Made by a program: the position numbers and the translations under genes | Notes under the pieces: model-generated | Databases searched by the model: none | Told to the model about the DNA's origin: nothing | The model's input: the letters and a program-made list of their open reading frames with translations, nothing else | From: a virus | IMG/VR virus record: IMGVR_UViG_3300002026_000004 | Span: 1-64,000 of that record | Strand: one strand, 5' to 3' | Length of the DNA: 64,000 bases | Shown here: in pieces, positions 1 through 32,415 of the stretch | Numbering within the stretch: the stretch's first letter is position 1 | Layout of the letters: each line of letters begins with the position of its first letter

Positions 1-908
1 GTTATTTAAACTCAGCATGATTACGCCATCTCTTGAAATTGCAAATGTATCATCTGTTACAGAACTATCAGCACCGATTCCCATGTCCCAATAATGGGTT
101 GCGGCTGTATCGGAAGCCATCCTTACTCTTGCACCAGCACTATTACCAGTAAAACCATTTGAACCATTCCGCATAAATGGAAGATGAGGAGAAATAATAG
201 CAACATACTTATCAACTGTTGTGCCATATAGAGTCGGCATAGTTGAAGCACCAGCCCAAGATGATGATGTATAACCTACAACGGCTTTGTTTGTATTATC
301 ACCAACGGTCAAAGTTCCTGTGACATTTAATGCACCATTAACATCACCTAATGTTAATGCTCCTGCTGGACCTGTTTCACCTTGAATACCTTGAATTCCT
401 TGACTTCCTGTTGCGCCTTGAATACCTTGACTTCCTGTTGCGCCTGTTGAACCAGTTGCGCCTGTTGGTCCTGTGGGTCCCATTACAGGATATCCACCAC
501 CAACATTGAAAATACAACTATCTAATGATACCCAAATATTTAAACCAAGAGCTGGCATAACATTTCCAGTAGTATAAATATCTATTCTTCCAGTAGTTTG
601 ATTTGAAATAGTAGATACAAGTTTTAAAACATTTGGCCTATAGCCTACTGGAAGTGTGAATACAGTTGCACTTATAGTTCCTCCTGATATCATGCCTTCT
701 ATAAAAACATTACCCGCACTATCCTTACGAAATCTTGTCGTTCCAAATCCATTATTATAATTAACCCAACCATTTTGAAATGCTGGTTCTCCTACTGCTC
801 CTACATAATGCCAATCTGTATCATATTGAGCACCTGTTATTGTGGAGTATTTACTGTTCCTATTGTTCCTGGATTATTTAATAATATTGGGTCTTCAAAT
901 TTAGACAT
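1..908 (-). CDS. Collagen-repeat tail fibre/receptor-binding protein; runs off the window and is interrupted by an apparent -1 frameshift near 840
   Basis: GAGGA RBS and ATG at 908 give MSKFEDPILLNNPGTIGTVNTPQ, then TAA at 839-837. The -1 frame is open from 873 to 1: ITGAQYDTDWHYVGAVGEPAFQNGWVNY...VFTLPVGYRP (fibre domain motif), 13 GXY triplets, then beta-rich sequence. Hand-translated, not in the ORF track. Confidence 0.75.
361..480 (-). repeat. Collagen-like (Gly-X-Y)13 coding repeat
   Basis: GPTGPTGATGSTGATGSQGIQGATGSQGIQGIQGETGPAG. Confidence 0.9.
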
Positions 909-926
909 TTAGAATCCTCATAAATA

Positions 927-958
927 AATTAGAGTAGATATTTCTACCTACTCTAATT
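927..958 (-). terminator. Intergenic hairpin overlapping a late-promoter-like motif
   Basis: AATTAGAGTAG-N10-CTACTCTAATT inverted repeat; ACTAATTA on the minus strand at 954-961. Confidence 0.55.
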
Positions 959-978: not shown

Positions 979-2574
979 TTAAACTGATGCTGTCTCTGTG
1001 TAGTAATAGCAATATAGTGTATGATATCCAGTCGCTCCTGCTGTTCCTGCACCACCAGTAGCACCAGTACCACCAGAGCCATAATCACCACCTCCATAAC
1101 CACCAGCACCTCCATAACCACCTTGACCATTAGGCCCATTAGCAGGGGAAGATGCCGCACTTGCCCCTCCCGAAGCATAACCAGGAGAGCCACATCCAGC
1201 AACCAATCTATTACCATTAGCACCGGGGTTACCATAATAGTAATAAATATTATGACCTAAAAAACTTTTTATTTTCATCCCTTGTCTCCCCCCCTCATTA
1301 TTTGGAATCCAATCTTCTCCAAATCCACCATAAGAGTACATATTATAGTTAAAAGACTCAAAAATACCCCCACCTGAAGATAACGCTTCTCCACCATTAA
1401 TGAAAAGTTTAGATGCTTGAGTACTAAAAGTACCTGATGTTCCTATTGTCGGATTACCAGCATTTTGATTAAACCCCTGAGAGGCACCAGAACCACCAGA
1501 AAAACCAGCTTGACCAGTACTAGTAGCAATGCTTAGAGTTAAAGAAGTTCCTGTTGTTATTGTTGGATATGTAAAAGTACCACTAGCAGAAGGCACAGCA
1601 GTAGAGTAACTTGGAGCGGTCCCAGGAACACCACCTCCTCCACCACCTCCACCAGAGGAACGCCAATCCCCATAGCCATTATAATCAAAACACATGTAAG
1701 CTCCGCCGCCACCACCACCACCTAAGCCGCCTAAACCCCCAGCACCACACGCATAAACAGAACCACTTACACGAGGATATTGTGCACTAGAAACATATAA
1801 AGGTTTAGAAATAGGAACAGTATATCCATTATAAATAGCATCTGAATGATATAAGTATTTAGGACCAGCATATAAAGTTTGACCACCAAATCTAACTTTA
1901 AAAAATCTGACTCCATCACTTTTACCATATTGGCTATCGGCATATAACATTAAATAATAATCAGTACTACCATATCTTACTTTCATAGTAGCGGTTTGTG
2001 CTATTGAATTTCCTGTTGTAGTAGTATAAAGAGGTATATCTACTCCTGGTAATGTCTTAACATATGCGTACATAGCCGCAGTTACATCTAAACCAGAATT
2101 AAAAAATAGGTCTAAAAACTGATTTTTTGTTTCTATTTTATTAGCTGATAGCTCTTCATATTTAAGTAATTCTGAATTAAACTTAGATGTTTTACCAGTA
2201 GTCTTATCAAATATAAATGTAGGTTGAAATACAGCTATTTGGCCTTGTATATTTTTACCAATAATTTTATTATTAATATCCTTAGCATAATCAGAATTAG
2301 CTTCTGGAATAGAAATAAACCAAAAGTCCTTTTCTAATAATGATAGATACTCAGGAGCTTCATCAAATAATTCTTCTTCTGTTTTAATAGTTTTAGAATA
2401 AGATATAGGGTCTGTATTGGTTGAAAGATTTACACTTGTATCTAATAGTATTTCTTTACAACTTTCATCTTTATATGTTCTTAATGCACATGAAGCAAAA
2501 AAAGCTTGCTTAGAAAAAGTCATAGAATCTATTCTAGTATAAGACCCCGGTATTAAAAAATTTTTGAAAGCCAT
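979..2574 (-). CDS. Glycine-rich tail-tip adhesin-like protein (polyglycine motifs reminiscent of T-even gp38), with an N-terminal tail-fibre-associated domain
   Basis: Multiple GGxGGxGGGGGGG runs; N-terminal domain ends AMYAYVKTLPG; lies in the fibre module. Confidence 0.65.
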   Translation of the reverse strand: MAFKNFLIPGSYTRIDSMTFSKQAFFASCALRTYKDESCKEILLDTSVNLSTNTDPISYSKTIKTEEELFDEAPEYLSLLEKDFWFISIPEANSDYAKDINNKIIGKNIQGQIAVFQPTFIFDKTTGKTSKFNSELLKYEELSANKIETKNQFLDLFFNSGLDVTAAMYAYVKTLPGVDIPLYTTTTGNSIAQTATMKVRYGSTDYYLMLYADSQYGKSDGVRFFKVRFGGQTLYAGPKYLYHSDAIYNGYTVPISKPLYVSSAQYPRVSGSVYACGAGGLGGLGGGGGGGAYMCFDYNGYGDWRSSGGGGGGGGVPGTAPSYSTAVPSASGTFTYPTITTGTSLTLSIATSTGQAGFSGGSGASQGFNQNAGNPTIGTSGTFSTQASKLFINGGEALSSGGGIFESFNYNMYSYGGFGEDWIPNNEGGRQGMKIKSFLGHNIYYYYGNPGANGNRLVAGCGSPGYASGGASAASSPANGPNGQGGYGGAGGYGGGDYGSGGTGATGGAGTAGATGYHTLYCYYYTETASV

Positions 2575-2588
2575 TTATATTCTCCTTA

Positions 2589-3467
2589 TTATTTTCCGCC
2601 ACAACCACAATCGGCTGAAGTATTTACACATTCTGAATAAAAAGCTAAGTAGTTCCTACAGGTATCTAAACACTTGTAAGGGTTTACTTCTTTTTTAAAA
2701 ACTTTCCTATTCATAATTAAATCTCTTGAATACTCCTCAGAGTTTTCAAAATTACTACACTTATATACTCTATTTTCAACAAAATCAATAAGTATAGATT
2801 TATGCTGATTATAACATTTATCAATAGGATATTTATAATCAACTTTCTCTAAAGAACGAACAATATAATTAATTAGTAATAGAGAGGACTCCTGAACTTT
2901 ACTCTTATTTTTATATAGAGTATCTCTAACTATTCTATAATCATTTAAGTCTAGTTTATTATAAACAGTATTACTAACAAACTTAGACATCTGTACTGGG
3001 TCAACATAAATCTTATTAGTAGTAGGAATAGTATCCAACATTGTTTGTATTTTAGATAAATCAGATTTAGTTACTACTATTAATGGATATATTTGTTCAT
3101 TTTGTCTTATTAAATAATTATCAGTAACATGATAAATATATTTAGTTTTATACTTATTTATATACCTAAAGTTTGGATGAGAAAATAACTTTCCATTTGT
3201 ATATATCTTTACTGAGTCTAATTTGTTGATTAGACCAGACTCATAGACTATTTCTTCAATACTATTCCAAATAGCTTCAGACCATAATCCAGGTTCCCCA
3301 CCAGAAAAGCTTAGAATAGGGTTTTTAAACTTATCGATTACCCAAGGAATTTCTGATTCTAACCTACTGATAACCAATTCATTATCAATAGTCTCAACAG
3401 AGCTAGGGTCATTACAATACTTACAATTAAGATTGCATTTCCCTCCCAGTTTTATATTTATTTCCAT
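2589..3467 (-). CDS. Radical SAM enzyme with C-terminal Twitch/SPASM-like Cys domain (paralogue 4)
   Basis: CNLNCKYC, FSGGEPGLW, IYTNG; C-terminal CYNQ...YKCS...CLDTC; tail SADCGCGGK. Confidence 0.9.
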   Translation of the reverse strand: MEINIKLGGKCNLNCKYCNDPSSVETIDNELVISRLESEIPWVIDKFKNPILSFSGGEPGLWSEAIWNSIEEIVYESGLINKLDSVKIYTNGKLFSHPNFRYINKYKTKYIYHVTDNYLIRQNEQIYPLIVVTKSDLSKIQTMLDTIPTTNKIYVDPVQMSKFVSNTVYNKLDLNDYRIVRDTLYKNKSKVQESSLLLINYIVRSLEKVDYKYPIDKCYNQHKSILIDFVENRVYKCSNFENSEEYSRDLIMNRKVFKKEVNPYKCLDTCRNYLAFYSECVNTSADCGCGGK

Positions 3468-3517
3468 ACTTCTTTTCCTTATATTAAACTAATATAATTA
3501 TTATATAAATCTTAACT

Positions 3518-4204
3518 TTAAGAAAAAGGAATAAACCCAATTCTTTTACTAAGGATTCTCAACTTTTCTCTCTGTTCAGTAGAACTTTGTCTTGGTGGAG
3601 TTAATGATAAATTACCTAAAATATAATTATCAGTAATATAACCAAAAGAAGCACCAACAAGATATAAAACTCTTCCTAAAAAGGAGTCCTCTAACCCCCA
3701 TTCCCCATCAAAATCAGAATGGAAGCATCTCCTTTTCATAATTTCTAACTTTCTTACTTTTTTTAAATATTTAGTAGAAATCACTAACCCACAAGAAAAT
3801 ATCAAAAAACGAGAAATTGGATTCCCTATTTGGATTTCCACTTTATTTCTTATATCTATTTCGCATAGAAACATTGCACATGCCTTTTTTTCTAAATAAT
3901 TTTCTAAACTTGTTTTAGAAACAACTTTATTAGTTATTCTATCACCATCAAAGAATAGAACAGCATCATAATCTTTTTCTAATATTACATCTAATCCCAA
4001 ATCTCTCATTTTTCCTGCTAGGAACCCTTCACCAACACTATTTACAATTACATTAGTCTCATTACATAGTAGTTTTTCTGAATCATCTGTGCATCTATCT
4101 AATACCCAATACCTATCCTCACTAGGAAACTCTTTAAGCTGATTAAGCATTTTATCAATAAAAGGTGCTTGATTTTGATTAATTACTAATGTAGCTATCT
4201 TCAT
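3518..4204 (-). CDS. GT-A fold (GT2-like) glycosyltransferase (paralogue 2)
   Basis: WVLDRCTDDS, RDLGL, FFDGD (DxD), WGLED. Confidence 0.85.
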   Translation of the reverse strand: MKIATLVINQNQAPFIDKMLNQLKEFPSEDRYWVLDRCTDDSEKLLCNETNVIVNSVGEGFLAGKMRDLGLDVILEKDYDAVLFFDGDRITNKVVSKTSLENYLEKKACAMFLCEIDIRNKVEIQIGNPISRFLIFSCGLVISTKYLKKVRKLEIMKRRCFHSDFDGEWGLEDSFLGRVLYLVGASFGYITDNYILGNLSLTPPRQSSTEQREKLRILSKRIGFIPFS

Positions 4205-4221
4205 ATACTATTTAGTAATTT

Positions 4222-4923
4222 TTATACAACTATAAATTTAAAGTTTTTTAAGGAATCTAAAGAGATTAATTTACTGCTTAATGCTTGTATAATTTGAGTT
4301 TGATTAATATTTATGTTTGTAGAACTCCCCTCTAATGGTCCTTTTACTTTAATATCAGTAGTAAATCCTATTTTATTACCTAAACAATGAAGAACTACAC
4401 CTAGAAAATTATCTTCTGCACCCCATCTTCCATCAAAAGCAGAATGAAAGCACCGTCCTTCCATAATTTTCATTTTTCTTACTTTTTTTAATACTGTTGT
4501 TTTTATTACCATACCACAAGAAACCAATTTAGAATAAAGAAATGTACTATAAATAAAATCATGTTCACGATAATCAAATAGGGTGCAAGAGAATTGAAGT
4601 GCATCAACTAATAACATCTTCTCCCTTATCTGTTCTAAATTAAACTCTTTTTCAGGAACTCTATCACCATCTAAAAAAATAACATAATCATAATCTTTTT
4701 CTAATATTACATCTAATCCCAAATCTCTCATTTTTCCTGCTAAGAAACCAAAACCTTCATTATTTATGATAACATTTTCATCATTAAATAGTGTGTAACT
4801 ATCATCAGTACATCTATCTAATACCCAATACTGGTCTTTTTTAGGGATATTTTTTAATTTAGATTGTATTAAAGGAATTGAATCAATTTGATTATTACTT
4901 ATGATTAAAGAGGCTATTTCCAT
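4222..4923 (-). CDS. GT-A fold (GT2-like) glycosyltransferase (paralogue 1)
   Basis: WVLDRCTDDS, RDLGL, FLDGD, WGAED. Confidence 0.85.
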   Translation of the reverse strand: MEIASLIISNNQIDSIPLIQSKLKNIPKKDQYWVLDRCTDDSYTLFNDENVIINNEGFGFLAGKMRDLGLDVILEKDYDYVIFLDGDRVPEKEFNLEQIREKMLLVDALQFSCTLFDYREHDFIYSTFLYSKLVSCGMVIKTTVLKKVRKMKIMEGRCFHSAFDGRWGAEDNFLGVVLHCLGNKIGFTTDIKVKGPLEGSSTNININQTQIIQALSSKLISLDSLKNFKFIVV

Positions 4924-5800
4924 TAGCTAAGTGCTCCAAATAAAAGAATGTTTCATGAACACAAGTATTACAGGATTCTTTAGGAAAAAGAGATTTATTA
5001 GTAACTAAATTTAATAACATTTTTTTAGAGTAAGGTAGTGTATCAGAAAAGTTACAACATTTATAAAATACTCCTTCAGATACATCAATTATTATTGAAA
5101 CTCTTTGATTATAACAGACATTTCGTAGCATATCTAACCTATTATTTTTTAGAGCACTATAAGAAAACATAATTTCATCTAAGCTATTCTTAGATATTTT
5201 TGACTCATACTTTAAGCACATTGATAAAAGGTTTTTATAATCATCTAAATCAAATCTTTCTGTTTTAGGTAGTTTAACAGAATGAGAAACCTGTACAGGG
5301 TCAAAATGTATATTAGAAATCCAAGGATTTAACTCAAAGAATATAGGTATGTTCTCAATATCTTTTTTTGATAATACTGCCATTAATTTAATATTATTAG
5401 TAATTTCATTATTTAATGACTCAGGAAGCTTAATAGCTTTACCAATATGAGGAGCTACATGCCAAATAATTTCTATATTATTTTTAGATTGGATAAAACT
5501 AAGTACTTCTTTATTTTCAAAGATACTTCCATTAGAGAATATTCTTATTTTAACAGTAGGTAAACATGAGGTTTCAATTATTTTCCAAATTTCATTCCAT
5601 AACCTTGAAGACCATAATCCAGGTTCCCCACCAGAAAACTCAAGCGTAGGTTTAGGTACAGCTTTAAATAAATAATTTATATTCTCTTTTAACCAAATAA
5701 TAAAAGCATCTTCAGAAATATGCTTACTATTTTTTTTATCTTGGTTACAGTAATCGCAATCCCAATTACAATCTTTATTAAACTTTAGGTCTATATTCAT
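4895..5800 (-). CDS. Radical SAM enzyme with Twitch-like domain (paralogue 3)
   Basis: CNWDCDYC, FSGGEPGLW, IFSNG; CYNQ...YKCC...CNTC. Confidence 0.9.
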   Translation of the reverse strand: MNIDLKFNKDCNWDCDYCNQDKKNSKHISEDAFIIWLKENINYLFKAVPKPTLEFSGGEPGLWSSRLWNEIWKIIETSCLPTVKIRIFSNGSIFENKEVLSFIQSKNNIEIIWHVAPHIGKAIKLPESLNNEITNNIKLMAVLSKKDIENIPIFFELNPWISNIHFDPVQVSHSVKLPKTERFDLDDYKNLLSMCLKYESKISKNSLDEIMFSYSALKNNRLDMLRNVCYNQRVSIIIDVSEGVFYKCCNFSDTLPYSKKMLLNLVTNKSLFPKESCNTCVHETFFYLEHLANGNSLFNHK

Positions 5801-6653
5801 TATTCAACTCTCTATTAGAAGATTTAAAACTTGCATAATTAAAGCAAGAATCACAATAATTAGTCTTAATAGGAATTTTTTTAAAAAAGTAGTTAATAAA
5901 ATTTTCTTTAGTTAATTCTATTTTATCCATTCTATTACAACAAGCGTAAATACAATTTTCTCCTATGTCTATATATACAAGTTTACATAAAGTGGAACAA
6001 ACTTTTCTATAGGAGTTTATTACATCCTTATTAGCACATTCTAGTTTTAGAATAGCTTCATCTGCTGATGATTTAATAATTTTAGGTTCTTTATAGCAAT
6101 ATTCAATAAAAGTTTTAATTTCTTCATTATTAAACTCAAGATTATTATATTTTTCTATAGGAGGGTATACAGCCATAGTTGTATTTATTTCTTTTATCCA
6201 AGAATTATTTTTAATAAATTGGTCTAAAAGTAATAAGTTTTTTTTGTCTATAACTACTAAAGGCTTGATGTTTCTATTAGTTAAATAAGTATATATATAA
6301 GATTTCTTAACTTTATCACTTAAACTAATATTAACATGCCATAAAAACTCTGCTTTAGAAAAACATTCCATAGCAATTTTGTTTTCAAAAACTAATCCAT
6401 TTGTAAAAATAGATACTTTGGCATTTGAGTATTTCAGAGCATTACTAAATGCTAACCAAATGGCATTAGACCACATCCCAGGTTCTCCTCCTATTAATTG
6501 AATACGGGAGGCTTTTGATATTTCTACATACTTTTTTACATTGGTATCTATCCAATTTATAACTTGTTCTTCTGTTTGAGTAGTATTATTTCTTTGAGTA
6601 CAATAATCACAATTCCAATTACACCCAGCATCATATCTAAATGATATTCTCAT
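5778..6653 (-). CDS. Radical SAM enzyme with Twitch-like domain (paralogue 2)
   Basis: CNWNCDYC, LIGGEPGMW, IFTNG; CSTL...YACC...CDSC. Confidence 0.9.
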   Translation of the reverse strand: MRISFRYDAGCNWNCDYCTQRNNTTQTEEQVINWIDTNVKKYVEISKASRIQLIGGEPGMWSNAIWLAFSNALKYSNAKVSIFTNGLVFENKIAMECFSKAEFLWHVNISLSDKVKKSYIYTYLTNRNIKPLVVIDKKNLLLLDQFIKNNSWIKEINTTMAVYPPIEKYNNLEFNNEEIKTFIEYCYKEPKIIKSSADEAILKLECANKDVINSYRKVCSTLCKLVYIDIGENCIYACCNRMDKIELTKENFINYFFKKIPIKTNYCDSCFNYASFKSSNRELNNEYRPKV

Positions 6654-6688
6654 TCTATTTTATCCTATTTTACTTTATTCTTATGTTT

Positions 6689-7549
6689 TTAAAAGTTTTT
6701 CTCTAAATAAAAAAATATTAAATTCCAACAATCCTTACATTCTTTTCGAGAGAAAATAAGAGAAGGGTGATGTAGAACCCCTTTTATGTAATTTGATTTA
6801 TTTAAGTCTAGTCTTTCATGAGCGTAGCAACAACCATATATTTTATTAGTAACTATATTTAATATTACTGAATTTCTTTGCATAGAACATTCTTTCCTTA
6901 TATCATCGATATCAGTATTTATAATAGCTTTTCCAAATTCTGCCATTTGTTTACTTATATCAGATATTTTTGGGTTTGAATAAAATATTTTTAATAATCT
7001 TTTATAATCATCAAGACTAAATTGGTCTGATTCTTTTCTAAGAGTTGGAGAGATTTGGGATATACTAATATTAAGTTTAGTAATCCAAGAGTTGTTATTT
7101 ATAAACTCCTGTATAGAATCAATATCTTCTTTATCAATAACAACCAATTCTTGTACATTTTTAGAGAATGTTAAGTAATTATTAGGAACTTTAATTTCAG
7201 TTTTTTCTCTAATACTAGGAGTTAAATGCCAACGATATCTTATATTCTCTTGTTTTTTTATTTCTGAAAATATGGGTATTCCAAATACTAAGCCATTTGT
7301 CATAATAAGAAAAGTAATATTATTAAATTTTTGTATTTTTAATAATAACACCTTCCAAATAGCTTCAGACCATAACCCAGGCTCTCCACCAGTAAAACTG
7401 ATATGTACTTTAGGTGTTATTTTAGCATAATAATCAAAATTATTATTTATCCAATTAATAAAGATACTATCATCATAATGTTGATGATTTTGAATACAAT
7501 AATTACAGTTCCAATTACAACCTGAATTAAATTTAATTGCTAAATGCAT
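6689..7549 (-). CDS. Radical SAM enzyme with Twitch-like domain (paralogue 1)
   Basis: CNWNCNYC, FTGGEPGLW, IMTNG; CSMQ...YGCC...CKDC. Confidence 0.9.
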   Translation of the reverse strand: MHLAIKFNSGCNWNCNYCIQNHQHYDDSIFINWINNNFDYYAKITPKVHISFTGGEPGLWSEAIWKVLLLKIQKFNNITFLIMTNGLVFGIPIFSEIKKQENIRYRWHLTPSIREKTEIKVPNNYLTFSKNVQELVVIDKEDIDSIQEFINNNSWITKLNISISQISPTLRKESDQFSLDDYKRLLKIFYSNPKISDISKQMAEFGKAIINTDIDDIRKECSMQRNSVILNIVTNKIYGCCYAHERLDLNKSNYIKGVLHHPSLIFSRKECKDCWNLIFFYLEKNF

Positions 7550-7559
7550 ATAAAGTTAG

Positions 7560-10500
7560 TTAATTTATCCAAATAGCTCTATCAGTAATGCTAGTAGTGC
7601 TAGGGATAACTAAAGTTCCTGTAACAGTTAATCCACCACTAGCATTTAAAGTTCCTGGGATTGTTGTATTTCCGCTTCCATCTAATAGTGTTAATGTTCT
7701 TGCCGCAGTAGTAAACGAATCTGAATATTGTCTAACATAAATAGGTTCAGTTCCGTTATCAGCAGTAGCTATTTCTAACCAACCAGCATCAGCGGCACCA
7801 CCTGTTGCTATTCTAAATGCATCAGATGTAGCCATAGCTCCACCTAAAACAACACCAGTAGAACTTGCGGCTGTATCCCTAAAAAATCCTAATCCTGAAT
7901 AAATCTTTTTAGCAGAAGCTAATCCACCAGCTAAAGTAACTGAACCAGCTATTGAGGAAGTAGCGTCTGTATCTAAAACGAAATTAGTTATTCCTGTTGA
8001 TAATAATTGTAGTCTGGGAACTCCTACAGACTTTAAGTTAAAATCAGAAGCTTCTACAGTTCCTATGTTTAAGGCTCCTGTGCCTTTATGAGTAATATCT
8101 GTAATTCCATTAGCTGTATTATTTCTAGTTACTAAAAATCCTTGAGAATAAGTAGAGTCTGCTTTTAATGCTAATGACGCTGAACCAGTTGTTGCTGTTG
8201 AGTCTACAGTAAAAGTAGCTGTGGAATAAGCTACAGGAGGTTGTAATACTGTATCTCTTCCTAATGTAACTAATGCAGAAGTAACTTTCATAGCTTCTGT
8301 ATTTGTTCCTATTCGTAAAAACCCTTCATTGGTAGCATTAGAATATAAGTTTAACCCTGTATAAGAACTAAAATAGGTAGTGTCTTTAACTAATAAAGAT
8401 TTTCCTATTGATGCTCCACCCCATACAGTTAATGCCGCTTCTTTTTCAGAAGTAGTATCTGTAGTAGAAATAACTGTTAATGATGAAGTTACTGCACCAA
8501 CTTTCTCTCCACTCTTTTCATTGAATAATAGATTAAGCTCTGGTTGAGTTAAAGCTTTATTATAAATACGAGCTTCATCAATCATACCCTCGTAATAATA
8601 AGTAGAACCAACATTATTTTTAATGTAAGTATTATTACCTAAATACTTATCAGTAGTAGCAAAACTGACCCCTGCTGATAATGTTGTTGAAGTTTCCCCA
8701 ACATAAATATTATTCATATAGAAGGATAACTTTCTAGTAGAACCATTATAAATCATTACCGCATGATACCAAGTATCCCTAGTAATTACAAATGGGATTA
8801 ATAATTCTGAAGTACCATCTGAAGCATACGCTGATATAATATTATTTGTAGAATCTCTAATAATACCATAAGGTTTACTTGCTGTTAATGAACCTACTGA
8901 GAATAATGAGAATTTATCTGTTGCTGACCATGAAGAGGTAGCAGGAATACTAAACCAACAAGACATTGTAAAAGAAGTATTAGTAGTAAAGTTCTCTGAA
9001 GTAAAATTAACTGAGCTTCCTGATTTAAACTTTAATGCTCTTCCCTGCATCCCACTAACAGGTAATACCCCTACCATTGAAGCATTATTCATATTATTAG
9101 AATCATCTAATAACTCTGAGGTATATGCACCAGTACCAATATAAATCCAGTCTATAGCGAAAGAATCTCCTGTTGATGCTGTATCATTAGCTCTAATTGA
9201 GAACTCTGTAGCAGTATCCGCTTGTAATAATACTAAATCTACAATATTAGATTTACCATTCTCAATAACGAATGCTGTATTATATTCTGTAGAAGAAATC
9301 GTGTAATAAAAACCATAGTTGACTCTGGAACCTGAGACATTCCTTATCTTTAGTCTTACATATTTTTGGTCAAAGCTTAAAGTTCTAGTTGCTCTAAATG
9401 GACCATTAACAGTAGAAGTAACAACTAATTCCCCATTAGATACAGATAGATTAGCTGATGACCCTGTAAAGGAATCTGTAGTAGCAAAGACATCTTGTAA
9501 GTAGTTTCTATTAGTAGGAGAATCCGGTATTAATCTAACATTATCAAAAGAATAGTAATTCCTTAAATTCTCATCAGATATTTTTGAACCGAATAATGTA
9601 TTTATTTTATAATCAGTAGTAGAATCTAAATACCTATTAACTCTATCTGTTTTACTAACAATAATTTTTATTGTCCAAGTATTATCAATAGGATTAACGC
9701 CTGTTCCTGATGAGTAAGCTAATCCTTGAGCGCCATATCTAATTCTAATTGAGTTTAAATCAATATACTCATATGTATATCCATATACCTTATCAGTAAT
9801 ATTTGTGAACTGGAATAAGTCAGGAATTGAATATGTTCCTACTGCTGATTTATAAGCATACATACGAACAGATAATTCTTTAAATTGGTCTGCTGAAGTT
9901 AAATCTAATGTAGAAATATCTACAACAGGATTAGTTGCTGGATTATAAGTTTCCCAAGTTGTGTTTGAAGGATATTCAACACGAGAAATTGCTGTAACAA
10001 ATGAAGGATTTTGTCCAAAGGCTTTATACTTAATTTGGTACTTTTCAGCACTAAGAGTATTCATATCTTTTAATATAAAATCAGTATTATCAATACCACC
10101 CCATAGATTTCCAATAACATCATAAAGAGCTTGATATTCAGGATTTGTAACTGCATCATAAGCTGTTCCATCCATTAATAAACAACCAGAATCAGAAGTT
10201 GGTTGTGTTGGGAAGTCTATTAATGATATAGTTCCTAATGGTGCAGTATCTGTAATGTCATAAGCGGGTTGAATAGAAGCAATTATTTCTGTTGCGGATA
10301 ATGCTAATCCAACATTAATATAAGAATCATAATAGGGGTTTATTGAATTAATATTCTGTGTAGTTTCACCAAAATTAGCAATATCAGTACCAGAAGCATA
10401 TACAGGAGAACCAGGAACTAATCCTGTAAATCCTTGTACTAATCCTAATCTACGAATAATAACTTTAGCGTTTGTTAATAATGTTCCAGTATTTACTAAG

Positions 10501-11132
10501 AACCCTACAACATTAGTTTTTAATACGGATTTTTGTTTAGAAGCTAAATATACTTTACCATCATCCGTTTCTGCCATTAATAATGGGTCACCAGCAGTAG
10601 TGATATCCTCACCTAATGTATATTGGTTTTCAGTATAACCTAGAGGACCACGAGAGTCACCTTCTAGTTTAATTACCATTTTATTAGCAGAAACAATTTG
10701 TCCTACTGATAATAGGTTATTACCATCTAAGGCGGCTGTATCTCTATCAGTAGTTAAACTACCATCAGGAGTATCAGCAACATAAACTGTCTTACCTGTA
10801 TTCCCAGCGAAACAAGCAGGAGCAGAACTATATGTATATAATCCTTCTCTTTGAATTTCAATTGGGTCACCGTCAACAGTTGTAGTATTTAGTGCTATAC
10901 CAATTACTTTATCAGTTAATTCAGAATCTGTAGCATATACTTTACCAGCAGTTGTCCCTGTCCAAGCGGCATTACCTACTGATACGAAGTCACCAGCAGT
11001 AATAGCTTCACCAGCTACTAACCAAGTTTGTGAAGGTTGAGTATAATCAGTTCCATCAATATTATATTTTAATGTTTTTGTATCTCTGTTAAGCCAAATA
11101 TCACCTGACTCTGAAAAAGGTAAGTCTGCCAT
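7560..11132 (-). CDS. Long tail fibre with capsid-cement-like repeats, tail-collar domain and LamG/concanavalin-like domain
   Basis: AGEAITAGDFV repeats; PLGTI...LLMDGTAYDAVTNPEYQALYDVIG (collar); SFTMSCWF...WYHAVMIY...EGMIDEARIYNKALT (LamG). Confidence 0.85.
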   Translation of the reverse strand: MADLPFSESGDIWLNRDTKTLKYNIDGTDYTQPSQTWLVAGEAITAGDFVSVGNAAWTGTTAGKVYATDSELTDKVIGIALNTTTVDGDPIEIQREGLYTYSSAPACFAGNTGKTVYVADTPDGSLTTDRDTAALDGNNLLSVGQIVSANKMVIKLEGDSRGPLGYTENQYTLGEDITTAGDPLLMAETDDGKVYLASKQKSVLKTNVVGFLVNTGTLLTNAKVIIRRLGLVQGFTGLVPGSPVYASGTDIANFGETTQNINSINPYYDSYINVGLALSATEIIASIQPAYDITDTAPLGTISLIDFPTQPTSDSGCLLMDGTAYDAVTNPEYQALYDVIGNLWGGIDNTDFILKDMNTLSAEKYQIKYKAFGQNPSFVTAISRVEYPSNTTWETYNPATNPVVDISTLDLTSADQFKELSVRMYAYKSAVGTYSIPDLFQFTNITDKVYGYTYEYIDLNSIRIRYGAQGLAYSSGTGVNPIDNTWTIKIIVSKTDRVNRYLDSTTDYKINTLFGSKISDENLRNYYSFDNVRLIPDSPTNRNYLQDVFATTDSFTGSSANLSVSNGELVVTSTVNGPFRATRTLSFDQKYVRLKIRNVSGSRVNYGFYYTISSTEYNTAFVIENGKSNIVDLVLLQADTATEFSIRANDTASTGDSFAIDWIYIGTGAYTSELLDDSNNMNNASMVGVLPVSGMQGRALKFKSGSSVNFTSENFTTNTSFTMSCWFSIPATSSWSATDKFSLFSVGSLTASKPYGIIRDSTNNIISAYASDGTSELLIPFVITRDTWYHAVMIYNGSTRKLSFYMNNIYVGETSTTLSAGVSFATTDKYLGNNTYIKNNVGSTYYYEGMIDEARIYNKALTQPELNLLFNEKSGEKVGAVTSSLTVISTTDTTSEKEAALTVWGGASIGKSLLVKDTTYFSSYTGLNLYSNATNEGFLRIGTNTEAMKVTSALVTLGRDTVLQPPVAYSTATFTVDSTATTGSASLALKADSTYSQGFLVTRNNTANGITDITHKGTGALNIGTVEASDFNLKSVGVPRLQLLSTGITNFVLDTDATSSIAGSVTLAGGLASAKKIYSGLGFFRDTAASSTGVVLGGAMATSDAFRIATGGAADAGWLEIATADNGTEPIYVRQYSDSFTTAARTLTLLDGSGNTTIPGTLNASGGLTVTGTLVIPSTTSITDRAIWIN

Positions 11133-11141: not shown

Positions 11142-13286
11142 TTACTTAATTATTAATTCATTTAATTGCTGTACTGCTTTTATTAGTAGTCCTATACAAT
11201 TAGTAATGTCCATAGCATTCTTTTCAGGAGTACTTAATAAGGGATTAGTATCCTCGGCTATGAATCCTATCTTAGGTAAATCTAAGTTTGTCTTAAAATT
11301 ATAATCAACTATCTTTGTATCAACTAAAATCTTTAATGCGTCACTTAAAGTATCAACTATATTGGTTTTCATTTCTCTTGATGATGTTGTATTAACATTA
11401 GTAGCATAGAAGTTTCCATTATAGTTTAATCTAGTTGAAGCTGAAGGGTTTGTAGTTCCTGCGTAGAAGCATCCATCACGGACAGATTGCCCATAAATTT
11501 TTAATGTCCCAGCTACTCCAACATTAAAAGCACCAAAGTTACCATTATATTGTAAATACTTAGTAAGGTCATTAGGTGATGTAGGATATTGTAATGAAAC
11601 TAAAGCATCACCAGAATCAATCATAGTTCCATAATATATGGCTAAATCGTTTTGAGTAACACTAGAAGTTGTGTCATCAAAATATACTTTTGTAAATGTA
11701 GAGTTTCCTGTTACTTCTAAATCATTAGATAATGTTGTTAATCCACTAGCAGTTAAAGTAGTAGCTGTTATTGCGTTAAACTCTGCTGTTGTATCAGTTA
11801 CTATAAATGTTCCTGAAGAGAAATGTGCGTTTCCAACTACAATTAAATCACTTGTAGCAAAATCTGAAGTAACTAAATCTGCTATTGTTGCTGTAGTAGT
11901 AACTAAGTCTGTAGTTAATATTTTTGATGTACTAAAAATACCATCATAATTTAATGTATAATTTGTATGTGATGGTTTAGCTACATGATACACAGGGGAA
12001 GTTCCAAGGAATTGATTTGGATTATACCCCATAAATACTAAACCAGGGAAAGTACCATCATCTTTAAATAGAATCTTTGTAGCGGGATCAATACCAGCTA
12101 TTGCTATTTTAGTTGAAGAATAAGGAATAAACTGGAAGGAATTAGAAAAATTAAATATAGAGGATTCTATTAAACACAATACATCCTCAATAAAGGACTG
12201 TCCAACTATATCAATTATTTCTATTCTAGTAGCACCGTTCTGAGCTTTATCTTCATTTCCTAATAGTATTAAGCTTTTATACCCTTGTGAGTTATCTACT
12301 GAAGCTGTTATTTTAGTAGATATTGCTATTCCTCCAAAAGTTTTTGCACCGAACTCTGTAGTTAACATTGATACTAAGTTTTCAATAGTTGTAGGTTTTA
12401 CAGGAACTTCAATTTTTACTAGCTCAGAATCTTCACAATCATTGAATCTAATATAAAAACCAGGAGTATAAGGAAGAGTACTCCAATCAGCAACATTATA
12501 AGGAGTTGTAATAAAGGCATTACCACTACTCATGTTGGTAGTAGAAAGAAAACTAAAGTCGTTAACACCACCACTACCATTATTATTTAACTTATCATTA
12601 GCATAATCACAAAATTCTTGTAAGGTATATGTATGAGTATTTGAATCTAAAGATACTTCATAAAAAGCTGAATCTGTTCCTAATGTAGTAATTCCTTCAT
12701 CAATAGCTACATGAAAAACTTGAGGAATACCAGAAGTAATAGTTACTGAGGAACCAATATCACCAGCAGGAATTAATAATAATTCAGAGCCACCATATAA
12801 AGCTCCTTCTAATTCTTGATATCCATTATATTTAATATATCCTGAAGCTGTTTCTGCGGCAATTTTAGGTAAGCTTTCTATTACTGTAACTCTTTCTTGA
12901 TGATTAGTTAAGCCCTCTGCTAAATAAAAGAAGTTATCATGAACTTGTTGTCCTGATAATGGAACTAAAATTGAGGTAAAATCACCAGGATTAGCACTAA
13001 AAGTAAATTCTTTACTTAGTTGACCTGTAACTATTGGGTTACCACCAAAGGTTACTGTCTTTTCTATATAATCAATACTAGTAACACTACGAAGGTCGAA
13101 ACCAGTTACACCAGAACAAAGAATACTTTGTCCTACAGATAAAACTGTTAATTGAGCATTAGAGAATCCTGTAATTAAATTACTATTACTAGGTATATTT
13201 AGACCAGTATATACATATGTAGGTCTAATATTATACTTTTCAACTGTAGTTAATTTCGTGTAGTCAAAGTTCCAAGGTGTTGCCAT
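11142..13286 (-). CDS. Tail fibre with C-terminal intramolecular chaperone (peptidase S74-like)
   Basis: TSSREMKTNI...ALKIL...KIGFIAED...LLIKAVQQL C-terminus. Confidence 0.85.
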   Translation of the reverse strand: MATPWNFDYTKLTTVEKYNIRPTYVYTGLNIPSNSNLITGFSNAQLTVLSVGQSILCSGVTGFDLRSVTSIDYIEKTVTFGGNPIVTGQLSKEFTFSANPGDFTSILVPLSGQQVHDNFFYLAEGLTNHQERVTVIESLPKIAAETASGYIKYNGYQELEGALYGGSELLLIPAGDIGSSVTITSGIPQVFHVAIDEGITTLGTDSAFYEVSLDSNTHTYTLQEFCDYANDKLNNNGSGGVNDFSFLSTTNMSSGNAFITTPYNVADWSTLPYTPGFYIRFNDCEDSELVKIEVPVKPTTIENLVSMLTTEFGAKTFGGIAISTKITASVDNSQGYKSLILLGNEDKAQNGATRIEIIDIVGQSFIEDVLCLIESSIFNFSNSFQFIPYSSTKIAIAGIDPATKILFKDDGTFPGLVFMGYNPNQFLGTSPVYHVAKPSHTNYTLNYDGIFSTSKILTTDLVTTTATIADLVTSDFATSDLIVVGNAHFSSGTFIVTDTTAEFNAITATTLTASGLTTLSNDLEVTGNSTFTKVYFDDTTSSVTQNDLAIYYGTMIDSGDALVSLQYPTSPNDLTKYLQYNGNFGAFNVGVAGTLKIYGQSVRDGCFYAGTTNPSASTRLNYNGNFYATNVNTTSSREMKTNIVDTLSDALKILVDTKIVDYNFKTNLDLPKIGFIAEDTNPLLSTPEKNAMDITNCIGLLIKAVQQLNELIIK

Positions 13287-14374: not shown

Positions 14375-16363
14375 TTAAGGAAGCTCTAATAAACAATTAA
14401 ATGTTAGATGGAATTCTTCCGTATTATAAATAATAGGAGGAAATGTTCCATATGCTACTAAGTTATTATTAGAATTAAATATTCCTACTTCAGTAATCCC
14501 AACAGTTTTTTCTGAGGACTCTGTACTAAAATTAGTAGAGTATGAACAAAGTAAATTTCCGTTCTGAGATATTACTCCTGTTCCGTTAAAGCCTATTGTT
14601 TTTCCTAATAAAGAATCTAATCCTATTTTTAGTTTTACTGTTAATATTCCTGTTTTATGATCTAAATCTGCATATACAGGATTTACTAATGATATTAATT
14701 CTAATTGAATTATACCTTGTGTATTACTAGAGGTATATTCACCTACTGCAAAAATATCACTATCTGTTATTTCACTATTTGTAGATAAAGTAAGTCCTGA
14801 ATATAATTCTCCATTAGCATCATATCCTTCATAAACAGAAGGTAATAATACATATTTATTTAATGCTTTACTATAGCTCTCTTGTAATACTACTGACCTA
14901 TTATAGGTGATATCTTGAAAAGAATCATAGAAATTAAGATTAATAATAAACTTACAATTACCAGGAGCTAGAAAGGTATGAGGAAGTTGAATTGTAGTTG
15001 TTGTACTTGTTATTGCATTCGATTCAGCTATAGAAAAAAGAACTGGAATAATTCTTTGTTCTTCAAATTTCTGAGGGTGAATAGAAGTAACTACTGCTTG
15101 ATAACCATTAATAGTATTAATATCATAATTACCAATTATTGATTGGAATACTGGATTAGAAACATCTGTAGGAGCGGGTTTTTCAGCTTCAGTGTCATCA
15201 GAAAAATAAGATAAACCAAGAGAACCTGTTCCTAGTCTTAGGTAGGAGGTAGTTCCGACTCCCCAATTATTGTTAAATACTTGAAATCTAGCTTTGATAT
15301 TAGGATGAGTATATTTAGTAGTACCATTTACTTGTAATACAGGGTCATCAATATATTTACCAGAATTACTAGCAACTAAAGATATCTGAGTTCCTATCAT
15401 TGCTGAAGTTGAAGCTTGCTCTACATTAGGTAATAATTCCTTTACATATAAAAGCCAAGGATTATCCATTAAACATTCATTAGTTCCTACAGAGTTTGTA
15501 TGAGATAAAATAGAATCAGCATTTAATTCTATCATTAAGCCTTTAGCATCAACACCGAATTCTAGTCCATTGTCATAATGGAGGTCAGGGTCATCATAAC
15601 TACGTTGTGTATCATATTTATAATATATCTTATCTGATAATAATGAATAATCCTGAACAGCCCTAATTCCTACAGAAGTAGGCCAAACACTGTTAATACC
15701 AGGAAGAAGTTTAGAAATATAATTATCAGAAGTATTCTTAGCGAAGAAGTTTGTTACCTTAAAATATTTACCAGTTAACTCAGTGAAGCTACCCATGCCT
15801 ACATAACCAGAACGTAAAAAAACATAGCCATGATGAAATAGTGAAGTAAATAAATAAGTATAACCTTTAGTTGTACCAGCCCATTTCCTCATTATATAAG
15901 AGTTTTTAACGAAATCAGATAACCAACGAGTTTTTATATCAGTGTTATTTGTTAATTCTGTTACTGGTAAATATGTATCTAAATAGTAATAAGAACTGAG
16001 TTTATCTAAAACTTCAGGTTTTATTTTTATATTTAGCATATTTAAAATGTTATCTATACGAGAAGAGTATTCTGAAATATCTCCAAAATACTTATCTTCA
16101 TTAAAGACACATTCTAATAAATATAAATATTCTCTTTTCTGTTTAGCCTCTTCTTTATAAGCATCAATAAAATCTGAATAAAATGTATTTTGTAATAATG
16201 AGTGTAGGTTGTTCTCAATTTCTAAACTAGGAATTGGATTATAACTAGTATCTATACTTTCAGTATTTTTTATTTTCTCTGAGTTAGATTCAACTACTTC
16301 TACATAATTGTTTACAGGAATCTGAGAATATGTAGAGGGGATTAATATTTTATACTCAGACAT
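14375..16363 (-). CDS. Baseplate wedge protein (gpI/gp7-like) with a C-terminal tail-collar-fibre-like motif
   Basis: RKWAGTTKGY motif; C-terminal ITEVGIFNSNNNLVAYGTFPPI; follows the baseplate J-like gene. Confidence 0.65.
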   Translation of the reverse strand: MSEYKILIPSTYSQIPVNNYVEVVESNSEKIKNTESIDTSYNPIPSLEIENNLHSLLQNTFYSDFIDAYKEEAKQKREYLYLLECVFNEDKYFGDISEYSSRIDNILNMLNIKIKPEVLDKLSSYYYLDTYLPVTELTNNTDIKTRWLSDFVKNSYIMRKWAGTTKGYTYLFTSLFHHGYVFLRSGYVGMGSFTELTGKYFKVTNFFAKNTSDNYISKLLPGINSVWPTSVGIRAVQDYSLLSDKIYYKYDTQRSYDDPDLHYDNGLEFGVDAKGLMIELNADSILSHTNSVGTNECLMDNPWLLYVKELLPNVEQASTSAMIGTQISLVASNSGKYIDDPVLQVNGTTKYTHPNIKARFQVFNNNWGVGTTSYLRLGTGSLGLSYFSDDTEAEKPAPTDVSNPVFQSIIGNYDINTINGYQAVVTSIHPQKFEEQRIIPVLFSIAESNAITSTTTTIQLPHTFLAPGNCKFIINLNFYDSFQDITYNRSVVLQESYSKALNKYVLLPSVYEGYDANGELYSGLTLSTNSEITDSDIFAVGEYTSSNTQGIIQLELISLVNPVYADLDHKTGILTVKLKIGLDSLLGKTIGFNGTGVISQNGNLLCSYSTNFSTESSEKTVGITEVGIFNSNNNLVAYGTFPPIIYNTEEFHLTFNCLLELP

Positions 16364-18342
16364 TAAGTTATCTCCACTAAGATAGCTTCTTCCGCTAATC
16401 TAATTAAACTATTTTCCTCAGTAGGTAGAATAGTTCCTTGATAAAAGTTTTTAGGATATGAATAAGCATGTATCTGAATACAATCATCTAACATCTCAGG
16501 GGCTTGATTAGGTAGAATGTAAGTATCAGGAAAAGTAATAGTTGAATCAAATAATGAAGAACCCCAATCTATAGAGATAATCATATCAACATAGTCAAGA
16601 CTACCATCTAAAATTACAGGATAACCATTTACAGTTCCTGCAAGTAATCCATCAATATTAGAATCATCTACAATGAAATCAATAAAAGTAAATTGAGTAA
16701 TTATAAATGGAGAAATCCCAGGAGTTTCTGTTTCATCAATATACTCAGAGTTTTTTGTTAAAAAGAATGACCTATTTTTAGTAGATAATGACTCACAAGC
16801 AAAAACAACGTCTATCCTCATATAGAAAGGAACACATTCGTATCTTAATATATTTATAAAAGCTGGATTAAATTGAAAGCTTTTCCTAAAAAGAAATTGT
16901 TGAGAATCATAAATAAAAGTAGATGTTTGTAAATACTGTTTAGCTAGAATAAAACTTAAAGTTGGAGTAATAATCTCCTTATACATGTTAGTGATGTATG
17001 AACTAACATCAATATTTGATATTGATTCTTTAAACTCAGTATTTAGGATACCATAATTATTATTTAATAATGTTTTAATTGAAGTATACAAAGTAGTCTG
17101 ATAATCAACACGAGATTGGTCAGGTTTTAATTCAGCTTTATAATTATACTGAATATCTATAAAATCAGGAGTAACAAACTTTATTAAATCTAATGAAGAT
17201 TTTCTATCTGAAATACGAGATAATAAATCTGCTTCAATATTAGTCTCATCAGGAGCATCTCCATAAGTATCAATAGCTGAAAATAATACTGAATCTCTAC
17301 CTAAATAAGTTCCTGAGTATACTATAGCTTTATAAACATAAGGTATTGACTCAATAGCTTGCTTATATTGTAGTTTAGAGATTATACTTCCTTCTAATAG
17401 ATACTGCTTAGGAGCTTTACCTCTAATAGATTCTATATCATCTCTATCAGAGCCACCAATTATTTTTGAATAATTTTTATAATAATAAGTAGTATTCTCT
17501 ATAATAATACTACCATTAACAACACCTATATCTGTTATATTTCCATTTAATCCTAATGTAGATAATCCATCAAAAATTACTATAGAACCAGAAGGAGGAA
17601 TTTTTCCAGTAACATTATTTCCAAACTTTAATATAAAGTAATCACTATCAGGGTCATTATCATTAAATACATTTATTACTTCATATGCATATGTGTCTGA
17701 ATCTGCTAAATAAATACTATCTACTTTTTCACAATTAATAATTGTATTATCAGTAAGCTGTAATTGAACAGAAAAATAATTACCAGAGACTGTATCTAAT
17801 GCCGCTTCAATATCAGACCGAGGTATTTTAATTTCTTGGAAAGGAATACCTAAAAGCTCTTGCCCAACCATAGTTAAACTATCAATTCTAGTACCTTGGA
17901 TAACAGGAACTTCTACATACTTACCGTCTTTTACAAAGGTAACATCTTCTGTTACTAATAAAGGAATAGAATAAGGAATTACAGTTAATGCTGGAATTGT
18001 AACTTCATCATGAGTATTACTAAGATTTTCTAATTCACCTACAGTTATTGCTGTTAAATCTTCATAAGCAAAATGTAAATATCCAATAGAAGATACCTTT
18101 CTATGAGGAGAATACCCAAAGAAACCAGCTTGTTCTGTTGCTGAAGATAGATTTTGTAATTGATTCCAAGTTTTTTCTCTAAATAGATTTTCGGAATACC
18201 TAACATCTTCTGATTCAGCTTCACTCAGAACAGTTATTAATGAATCTAATGCACTATCTTCAATTATATTCTTCCAAGAATCCTTTTGAGATAGTCTTGA
18301 TAATAATCGTGCTTTAATAGAATAGGAATCATAAGATTTCAT
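16363..18342 (-). CDS. Baseplate wedge subunit (T4 gp6/baseplate J-like)
   Basis: FFGYSPHRK, VPVIQG, LKFGNNVTGKIP, GGSDRDDIESIR. Confidence 0.85.
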   Translation of the reverse strand: MKSYDSYSIKARLLSRLSQKDSWKNIIEDSALDSLITVLSEAESEDVRYSENLFREKTWNQLQNLSSATEQAGFFGYSPHRKVSSIGYLHFAYEDLTAITVGELENLSNTHDEVTIPALTVIPYSIPLLVTEDVTFVKDGKYVEVPVIQGTRIDSLTMVGQELLGIPFQEIKIPRSDIEAALDTVSGNYFSVQLQLTDNTIINCEKVDSIYLADSDTYAYEVINVFNDNDPDSDYFILKFGNNVTGKIPPSGSIVIFDGLSTLGLNGNITDIGVVNGSIIIENTTYYYKNYSKIIGGSDRDDIESIRGKAPKQYLLEGSIISKLQYKQAIESIPYVYKAIVYSGTYLGRDSVLFSAIDTYGDAPDETNIEADLLSRISDRKSSLDLIKFVTPDFIDIQYNYKAELKPDQSRVDYQTTLYTSIKTLLNNNYGILNTEFKESISNIDVSSYITNMYKEIITPTLSFILAKQYLQTSTFIYDSQQFLFRKSFQFNPAFINILRYECVPFYMRIDVVFACESLSTKNRSFFLTKNSEYIDETETPGISPFIITQFTFIDFIVDDSNIDGLLAGTVNGYPVILDGSLDYVDMIISIDWGSSLFDSTITFPDTYILPNQAPEMLDDCIQIHAYSYPKNFYQGTILPTEENSLIRLAEEAILVEIT

Positions 18343-18346: not shown

Positions 18347-19105
18347 TTATTTCTCCGTAATTGTAAATACTATAGGTATTATAAACTTATTATAATCATC
18401 TGATAAATATAAAGTAACTTTAAATAGTTTATTCTCAGGTTCAGGAGTAACAATTAGCTCCTTAGTAGTTAGTGAATAAAACTTTTCAGTTATTTGACTT
18501 CTTAATAATGTATCTATTTCTTTAGCATAAGACTCAGTTACTTGTTTACCTAATATAGTATCTAAAGGACCACCTAAATTAAGTTTTCTACCATAATCAC
18601 CTTTCTTAGAAAATAACCATAATTTTAATGCATTCTTAAAAGCTTCTACATCATATAAAACTAATGTAGATGTAGATAATTCTGGTCTGGATACAGAATA
18701 GATATTTATAGGAGTAATAGTAGAGTTAGCTAAAGTTGATTTAACAAACCTACAGTATACCGCTTGTGAAGGTAATGGTAGAATAATATCAACATCCTCA
18801 AGAGTATTACTAGAAGTGGAGCGACCAAAGTTTAATAATTCAACTTTATTAGTATTATAAAACTTTAAACTAATAATGCCAGATGCTACTGACCATTGCA
18901 TTTTAATATGAATAATAGTAGATTGTTGTAAATCAATATAAGTATCTATTCCTAATGGTAGTAGTTCTAAAGTAGTAATAGTATTAGGATTCTTATATAA
19001 ATCTATTTCTGTGGAAGAATAAGAAGAAGAATAATTCTTATACCCCTTATAGTTTAAGTCTGCGTATTTTATATTAGCATTATTCTTTTTAGTTATTACA
19101 TTCAT
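18347..19105 (-). CDS. Baseplate protein with a C-terminal gp25/GPW-like domain
   Basis: DVEAFKNALKLWLFSKKGDYGRKLNLGG pattern; directly upstream of the gp6-like gene. Confidence 0.7.
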   Translation of the reverse strand: MNVITKKNNANIKYADLNYKGYKNYSSSYSSTEIDLYKNPNTITTLELLPLGIDTYIDLQQSTIIHIKMQWSVASGIISLKFYNTNKVELLNFGRSTSSNTLEDVDIILPLPSQAVYCRFVKSTLANSTITPINIYSVSRPELSTSTLVLYDVEAFKNALKLWLFSKKGDYGRKLNLGGPLDTILGKQVTESYAKEIDTLLRSQITEKFYSLTTKELIVTPEPENKLFKVTLYLSDDYNKFIIPIVFTITEK

Positions 19106-19614: not shown

Positions 19615-19630
19615 GTATAATTAGTATAAT

Positions 19631-22992: not shown

Positions 22993-23078
22993 GGTTATAT
23001 TCCTCACTTAATATTAGTAATAATTTCATTTACTATACCTAATTAGTAATTAGCTTAGATGGTAGGATTGCTCTTCAT

Positions 23079-32404: not shown

Positions 32405-32415
32405 ACATAAATTAG

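Follow-up and report, generated by a model that had tools for sequence, protein, structure and literature searches.

A radical SAM and glycosyltransferase cassette in the tail-fiber operon of a large phage, and its possible role in tailoring virion glycans

The virus record IMGVR_UViG_3300002026_000004 of IMG/VR (100,236 bp) was analyzed over its first 64 kb, hereafter the window (64,000 nucleotides). Within the tail-fiber operon of this window, the minus strand carries a head-to-tail run of six intact enzyme genes, flanked by the genes for a 1190-residue LamG fiber and a 531-residue Gly-rich protein. Four of them encode radical S-adenosylmethionine (rSAM) enzymes and two encode glycosyltransferase (GT)-like proteins, in the order rSAM-A, rSAM-B, rSAM-C, GT-1, GT-2, rSAM-D. 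We tentatively propose, as a reading that falls somewhat short of probable, that the GTs glycosylate fiber or adhesin proteins and that the rSAMs tailor the sugar. Glycan chemistry aimed at the virion is favored because the GT family is embedded in tail genes and translationally coupled to them in unrelated phages, because sugar-tailoring enzymes surround more distant members of the rSAM family, and because neither a precursor-peptide gene nor a leader-binding domain accompanies the rSAMs.

All genes of the cassette are on the minus strand. The first, rSAM-A (6689-7549, 286 aa), was assigned to the Twitch type from its alignments and a 38.0-bit match to Pfam PF04055, and rSAM-B (5778-6653, 291 aa) matched the same model with 29.7 bits. 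They are followed by rSAM-C (4895-5800, 301 aa), for which a structural model was built, by GT-1 (4222-4923, 233 aa), a GT-A-like protein with a DGD motif that matched the GT profile at 6.1e-80, by GT-2 (3518-4204, 228 aa), the modeled GT-A-like copy, and by rSAM-D (2589-3467, 292 aa), recognized by alignment with the other three copies. The 3' end of rSAM-D lies 14 nt ahead of the gene for the Gly-rich protein (979-2574), a candidate adhesin and candidate substrate, directly 3' of which a hairpin with a 14-bp stem and a T-rich tail (927-958, minus strand) probably marks the end of the operon. A first, sequence-only reading of this DNA had described eight open reading frames (ORFs) here, and all of them were recovered at the stated coordinates on the minus strand. 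Genes in the cassette either overlap, the 3' end of rSAM-B with rSAM-C by 23 nt and that of rSAM-C with GT-1 by 29 nt, or are separated by 10-50 nt; as no gap exceeds 50 nt, no unannotated small peptide ORF fits. Hallmarks of a cluster for ribosomally synthesized and post-translationally modified peptides (RiPPs) were missing accordingly: the cassette gaps hold no small precursor-peptide gene, and the rSAMs carry no N-terminal extension of the RiPP recognition element (RRE) type.

The four rSAMs align end to end with 26-35% mutual identity. Invariant among them are the cysteines of the CxxxCxxC motif (C11, C15 and C18), a GGEPG(L/M)W motif, C229, C248, C277 and C280, the last two being spaced as Cx2C except in rSAM-D (the 2589 copy), where the spacing is Cx3C; an NG motif and a His are also retained in all copies. 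With the CxxxCxxC and GGE motifs and a partial TIM-barrel fold, these proteins belong to the radical SAM superfamily, two of them scoring above the Pfam Radical_SAM cut-off and the other two just below it (19-27 bits). An exhaustive profile search returned 66 cluster representatives at E<1e-30 and 562 at E<1e-10, nearly all of 265-320 aa. Across 80 distant members, the SAM-cluster cysteines, C248, C277 and C280 were invariant, and C229 was conserved in at least 90%. As these four C-terminal cysteines are conserved, and as the alignment to BtrN, anSME and BlsE spans the C-terminal domain, the proteins are placed by model and alignment in the SPASM/Twitch class, with a single predicted auxiliary cluster. 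A SPASM domain proper (PF13186) was not found in any of the four copies at E<=1, its seven-cysteine motif being replaced by only four conserved cysteines.

No curated Pfam or NCBIfam model fits the family. The best hidden Markov model (HMM) matches were HxsC, prokaryotic viperin, MoaA, NrdG and PapB, all covering only the N-terminal core and all far under their cut-offs. The window protein compared with NCBIfam did not match the N_Twi_rSAM model (NF033640) at E<=0.001, and only seven of the 80 family members matched it weakly (best 1.8e-5); in contrast to that family, with its N-terminal twitch domain, the window proteins have their auxiliary cysteines at the C-terminus and their CxxxCxxC motif from residue 11. 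The rSAMs belong to an uncharacterized, apparently viral family.

The AlphaFold model of rSAM-C, with a predicted local distance difference test (pLDDT) score of 90.2, was compared with solved structures using VIA-align. The matches included anSME (Z 16.2), BlsE (Z 15.5), SuiB (Z 15.2), SkfB (Z 15.2), ChlB (Z 14.8), viperin (Z 14.6), MoaA (Z 13.6) and BtrN (Z 12.6), in line with the Twitch/SPASM assignment of the sequence-only reading. Like the window rSAMs, BtrN, BlsE, SpeY and anSME combine a partial TIM barrel with a C-terminal Cys-ligated domain, with Z values of 12.6-16.2 over most of the chain, and BtrN presumably shares the same C-x18-C...CxxC spacing; identity to these enzymes is 12-17%, however, and there is no family-level HMM match. 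Sugar-acting enzymes (BlsE, BtrN, DesII, SpeY) appear among the structural matches together with modifiers of proteins or peptides, so that the predicted fold does not discriminate between a sugar and a protein substrate.

In a maximum-likelihood tree, the four window copies formed one clade with support of 88-92, which we read from the sequences as an old, lineage-specific duplication. By contrast, the four copies in each of two T4-like contigs (L005 and L015) were pairwise orthologous and fell into distinct subfamilies. Two side observations concern the paralogues. The stretch encoding GGEPGLWS is near-perfectly identical at the nucleotide level in three copies (3249-3323, 5579-5653 and 7337-7411), although the rSAM paralogues are otherwise about 30% identical, and a 146-nt stretch is 82% identical between the two GT genes (3925-4070 versus 4647-4792). 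Such islands of identity could reflect gene conversion or strong codon-level constraint.

GT-1 and GT-2 are about 50% identical, and with the identities among the rSAMs this bears out the four-plus-two paralogy first seen in the sequence. Neither protein had a significant Pfam or PHROG match. For the Pfam GT2 families (PF00535, PF13704 and others), the best result was Glyco_tranf_2_4 at E 0.16 (12.9 versus 27.5 bits) in one copy and nothing in the other, and the homologues collected, 31 clusters, include none with a functional annotation. A model of GT-2 built from the homologue alignment (pLDDT 90.7) nevertheless adopts a GT-A/GT2 fold. Foldseek matched this model to TarS, TarP, K4CP and SpsA at E of about 1e-8, with template modeling (TM) scores of 0.62-0.67, and it also resembles many viral GT-A proteins. 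Among 30 homologues D36, D86, G87, E172 and D173 are invariant and D88 is conserved in at least 90%. Taken with the model, these residues identify GT-1 and GT-2 as proteins of predicted GT-A fold with a DxD motif (DGD). The enzyme classes named by the sequence-only reading, Twitch-type rSAM and GT-A, are therefore upheld by AlphaFold models and conserved motifs alike. Both GT proteins consist of the catalytic domain only, with no membrane segment or additional domain.

In each of the five other phage loci that contain it, the GT gene is embedded in or adjacent to tail or fiber-like genes. One of these is a complete 45-kb phage with terminal repeats, in which the GT gene, sited between the tape-measure and tail-fiber genes, overlaps both neighbors by 4 nt and no rSAM was detected; such placement in a tail operon argues for late, virion-linked expression. 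In a second locus (L012) the GT is preceded by a LamG protein and two Ser/Thr-rich proteins of 470 aa, in a third (L013) by a protein sharing the C-terminal 100 residues of that Ser/Thr-rich pair, and in a fourth (L014) it adjoins four Ser/Thr-rich proteins.

This context also bears on an improbable alternative, namely that the cassette acts late in infection on a glycan of the host envelope (teichoic acid, lipopolysaccharide or capsule precursors), editing it to block superinfection or to keep progeny off debris, the fiber location being then only that of a hypervariable host-interaction island. The best structural matches of the GTs are wall-teichoic-acid GTs, including the prophage-encoded TarP, and rSAM arrays of other phages do occur in hypervariable islands, sometimes beside replication genes (gp32, helicases). 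Moreover, O-chain modification has been proposed for GTs in the host-recognition cluster of pelagimyophages by the authors who described it (PMC7029224). Nevertheless, the window GTs are small and soluble and, as catalytic domains only, lack a membrane or polymer-binding module, a GT of the same family is translationally coupled inside the tail operon of the complete 45-kb phage, and no flippase, Gtr-type membrane partner or lysogeny gene was noticed in a record that was not searched for them specifically.

Members of the rSAM family occur in viral contigs as arrays of two to four genes, often together with other rSAM types, and 27 of 116 neighboring proteins carry Radical_SAM. These contigs bear T4-type markers (gp20 portal, gp15, gp32), and among the neighbors of the arrays are two carbamoyltransferases, a sulfotransferase, an NDP-sugar 4,6-dehydratase/epimerase, DegT aminotransferases, a polysaccharide deacetylase and PIG-L. 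In a T4-like viral contig of 207 kb (L015, 995-10813), seven consecutive rSAM genes are interleaved with genes for a DUF6071 protein and two carbamoyltransferases of the NodU/TobZ type, and a papain-like peptidase comes next. The nearest relatives were P0034 and P0077, both from one 17-kb contig, P0080, P0004 and P0018; a search for P0080 and P0018 in viral contigs found neither. Scans of metagenome and genome contigs with motifs of the window clade gave generic rSAMs only, with no co-occurrence of the GT.

Among the records searched, the two families were found paired in this contig only. The GT family was tail-linked in every other locus, which supports the sequence-only reading on this point. 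When 125 neighbor proteins of rSAM-rich clusters were compared with the GT profile by hhalign, none matched (best probability 5%). The two families may not be obligatory partners.

The Gly-rich protein consists of an orphan N-terminal domain of about 270 aa and a Gly/Tyr/Ser-rich C-terminal half containing runs of seven and eight glycines, four cysteines and many tyrosines; glycine makes up 17% of the protein, reaching 25 per 60 residues. It has no Pfam, PHROG or Protein Data Bank sequence match, and a word-based search of 5.8 billion proteins returned nothing homologous to its N-terminal 270 residues. A weak, sub-threshold lead in the Atlas pointed to viral Gly_rich_2 proteins. Gly-rich motifs are a feature of polyglycine-II adhesin domains (T-even gp38, ALK). 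In the public gene call at 979-2574 (P0226), translation begins at an internal Met and gives a product of 365 aa; a good AAGGAG site is present for the full-length ORF.

Under the glycan-tailoring proposal, the cassette would be transcribed with the fiber genes, in part from a motif that also lies upstream of the tail tube, sheath and fiber genes. The two soluble GT-A enzymes would take nucleotide-sugars from the host and glycosylate a cytoplasmic acceptor, most probably the Ser/Thr-rich LamG fiber, the Gly-rich protein or a collagen-like fiber. The four Twitch-type paralogues would then carry out radical tailoring of the sugar, before or after its transfer, by candidate steps such as oxidation, epimerization, deoxygenation or C-C/C-X chemistry.

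Several observations weigh against this proposal. Its presumed acceptors are drawn from genomic linkage to tail genes. The sugar-enzyme context described above belongs to distant rSAM relatives (about 20-30% identity) and not to the window's own clade. Four GT-bearing records, including a complete one, yielded no member of the rSAM family, and whole-record searches of five rSAM-rich phage records yielded none of the GT family; for fragmentary records, empty results of this kind show little. A Pfam Epimerase gene (NAD-dependent sugar epimerase/dehydratase) was found nowhere in the record, a search that covered this one type of sugar gene in a genome of which about 63% is missing. Finally, protein and peptide modifiers (anSME, SuiB, SkfB, CteB and EpeE) are among the best structural matches of rSAM-C, and the nearest NCBIfam model is HxsC (TIGR03977), the best similarity for 68 of the 80 family members; HxsB and HxsC are rSAMs that mature a repeat-bearing protein in HXS, a bacterial defense system whose effector is periplasmic (Li et al. 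2026, PMC13128918).

These last points are what would be expected if the rSAMs acted directly on residues of a virion protein, probably in the Gly/Tyr/Cys-rich half of the Gly-rich protein (979-2574) or in a fiber, and the GTs worked independently. We regard this as unlikely, though the likeliest of the alternatives considered. Crosslinking, epimerization or oxidation would be carried out in the manner of anSME, sactisynthases, EpeE or HxsB/C, with four paralogues for four kinds of site. ChlB is a further top structural match on this side; the lineage-specific expansion of paralogues would be expected for diversifying site specificity, rSAM-D ends close to the Gly-rich gene, and the C-terminal half of the product offers cysteines and tyrosines. 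Against it, similarity to peptide maturases is limited to the N-terminal SAM core and far under cut-offs, HxsC scoring 37.9 bits where 267.9 are needed, about one seventh; the rSAMs carry neither an RRE nor a leader-binding extension, and no gene for a small precursor was found; distant family members sit among sugar-tailoring enzymes and not among repeat proteins; and no homologue of the Gly-rich protein was found beside the rSAM family elsewhere. HXS resembles this reading in that paired rSAMs mature a repeat-bearing protein instead of a small peptide, but the block contains no HxS-repeat gene and no HxsD, and by score and context the window enzymes are not HxsC members. A combined form, in which the rSAMs are virion-protein maturases that install radical crosslinks or residue changes in the Gly/Tyr/Cys-rich adhesin or the fibers, with sugar added on top by the GTs, seems to us rather doubtful. 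If it were true, a phage would be applying RiPP-type radical chemistry to its own host-recognition apparatus.

The product might instead lie outside the virion, as a hypermodified DNA base or sugar, or as a diffusible aminoglycoside-like small molecule or nucleotide analogue, which we consider a long shot. Phage GTs are cited in PMC12619734 as often glycosylating DNA; a Thermus-phage rSAM module has been speculated to modify DNA (bioRxiv 10.1101/2024.08.14.607894); Campylobacter phages combine multi-rSAM clusters with amidinotransferases (PMC2853527); and the SAM core of the window enzymes has viperin-like similarity. The cassette, however, belongs to a tail operon and does not accompany genes of replication or nucleotide metabolism; linkage of the GT family to tail genes holds in 5/5 other loci; nothing in the cassette was noticed that could act as a partner in base modification; and viperins lack the auxiliary cluster that is conserved in the window rSAMs.

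Expression signals upstream of cassette genes are consistent with the timing that glycan tailoring of the virion would need. The motif AACTAACTT (7553-7561, minus strand; ACTAACTT at 7560-7553) lies 12 nt 5' of the rSAM-A ATG, and TACTAAATA (4209-4217, minus strand; ACTAAATA at 4216-4209) lies 13 nt 5' of that of GT-2, in both cases with no Shine-Dalgarno sequence, a type of site that is otherwise common in the window. Of 79 occurrences of WACTAA[ATC]T, 22 fall no more than 60 nt ahead of a gene start on the same strand, where 2.9 would be expected; the motif also precedes the tail tube, sheath and fiber genes and several others. Seven sites (4209-4217, 7553-7561, 19618-19626, 32409-32417, 36978-36986, 49857-49865 and 52490-52498) stand exactly 12-13 nt ahead of an ATG; the corresponding seven genes, rSAM-A and GT-2 included, have TAACTAAT-like bases spanning about -13 to -6 relative to the ATG and lack a Shine-Dalgarno sequence. 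We take this geometry to match that of the T4 late promoter TATAAATA, counted from the transcript start; it points to a -10-like promoter element, from which a subset of genes would be transcribed as leaderless mRNAs. The late-promoter-like motifs claimed by the sequence-only reading thus both exist and belong to an enriched upstream class shared with tail genes; their lateness is a matter of fit, a motif common to the cassette and the tail genes being compatible with late expression. Sigma-70 promoters were not enriched in the region (66 found versus 78 expected). Further genes have the same TAACTAAT-like motif 23-41 nt upstream, followed by GGAG.

To our knowledge, virion glycosylation has been shown only for mycobacteriophages, the decoration of phage host-recognition proteins by enzymes has hardly been explored, and no rSAM enzyme has been linked by experiment to a virion component or a phage-made glycan. 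In the mycobacteriophage case, phage GTs reportedly O-glycosylate the virion at the C-termini of capsid and tail-tube proteins (Freeman et al. 2023, as cited in PMC12619734 and PMC12801897). This system resembles our proposal in that soluble phage-encoded GTs decorate virion proteins, and differs from the window in having no rSAM enzymes. PMC12801897 also describes a cyanophage trio of rSAM, aminotransferase and amidinotransferase.

The closest parallel in gene content is the host recognition cluster of pelagimyophages and cyanomyophages, where Zaragoza-Solas et al. (2020, PMC7029224) reported rSAM cassettes and GTs with no function assigned to the rSAM cassettes. As in the window, they lie among the tail-fiber genes of large myoviruses; those cassettes vary between close relatives, and T4-like contigs hold distant members of the window's rSAM family. 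Unlike that cluster, the window cassette is compact (4+2), with its own rSAM clade and a different, unnamed GT family, and its phage is not recognizably a T4-like pelagimyophage: the tail sheath had no tblastn match at E<=1e-3 in 50,697 sequenced phage records, and sheath and baseplate wedge have remote PHROG matches only. An anaerobic host, suggested in the sequence-only reading from the oxygen sensitivity of rSAMs, is not supported, since relatives of these enzymes are common in T4-like phage contigs such as those reported for pelagimyophages from oxic marine waters (PMC7029224).

Among cultured phages, the rSAM family was matched in Campylobacter Firehammerviruses only. Timms et al. (2010, PMC2853527) had counted 11-12 rSAM genes in the Campylobacter phages CP220 and CPt10, with no assigned function. 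In CPt10 (NC_027996.1, 73874-79429), a cluster of five rSAMs and an amidinotransferase lies just 3' of the baseplate hub/lysozyme and PAAR genes, and gp087 matches the N-terminal core of the window family at 2.7e-41. Like the phage of the window, CPt10 is a low-GC myovirus with adjacent rSAM genes. Unlike the window enzymes, gp087 is a short form of 193 aa without the C-terminal auxiliary-cluster domain, and the CPt10 cluster has an amidinotransferase and no GT of the window's family. The earlier statement that no characterized system has this composition still holds, yet uncharacterized rSAM cassettes with GTs had been mentioned for phage host-recognition regions (PMC7029224, PMC2853527).

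With six genes, the cassette is a compact example of a recurrent theme among large uncultured phages. It unites two families that have no curated model, and its size suits heterologous reconstitution. The identity of its product bears on host range, on the protease resistance of fibers and on immune or defense recognition of virions, as well as on the unexplained abundance of rSAM genes in phages of oxic waters.

The source is a large phage, as 100,236 bp were rated only 37% complete by CheckV. The GC content of the window is about 29%. The cassette, rSAM-C, GT-2 and the tail sheath, used as queries in DNA and protein searches, had no match in the sequenced phage records mentioned above, and the lineage appears to be deep-branching judging from these comparisons. 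A myovirus tail module occupies positions 1-24,200 on the minus strand and includes, besides the cassette, the tail sheath (20923-23007), a tube-like gene (19102-19614), the baseplate wedge (16363-18342) and a gene with a tail-fiber C-terminal domain (11142-13286). The LamG fiber (7560-11132, minus strand) was identified by Pfam Laminin_G_3 at 4.9e-17, with Collar at 5.9e-4 remaining below cut-off; Ser and Thr make up 23% of its residues, which makes it a candidate acceptor.

The collagen-like (Gly-X-Y) tail fiber (1-873, minus strand), recognized from PHROG tail-fiber families and its reading frame, runs off the contig end. In the region 1-908 its frame is open up to 873, and the sole plausible start belongs to a 23-aa ORF (908-837) in a different frame; its 5' end could reflect a frameshift, programmed slippage or erroneous sequencing. 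The tube-like and sheath genes are separated by tandem paralogues of about 200 aa each (19668-20258 and 20265-20870, 30% identity). At the upstream edge of the module, a GIY-YIG homing endonuclease gene (24240-25163; PHROG 314, 1.4e-54) adjoins a 370-aa gene beside the sheath gene.

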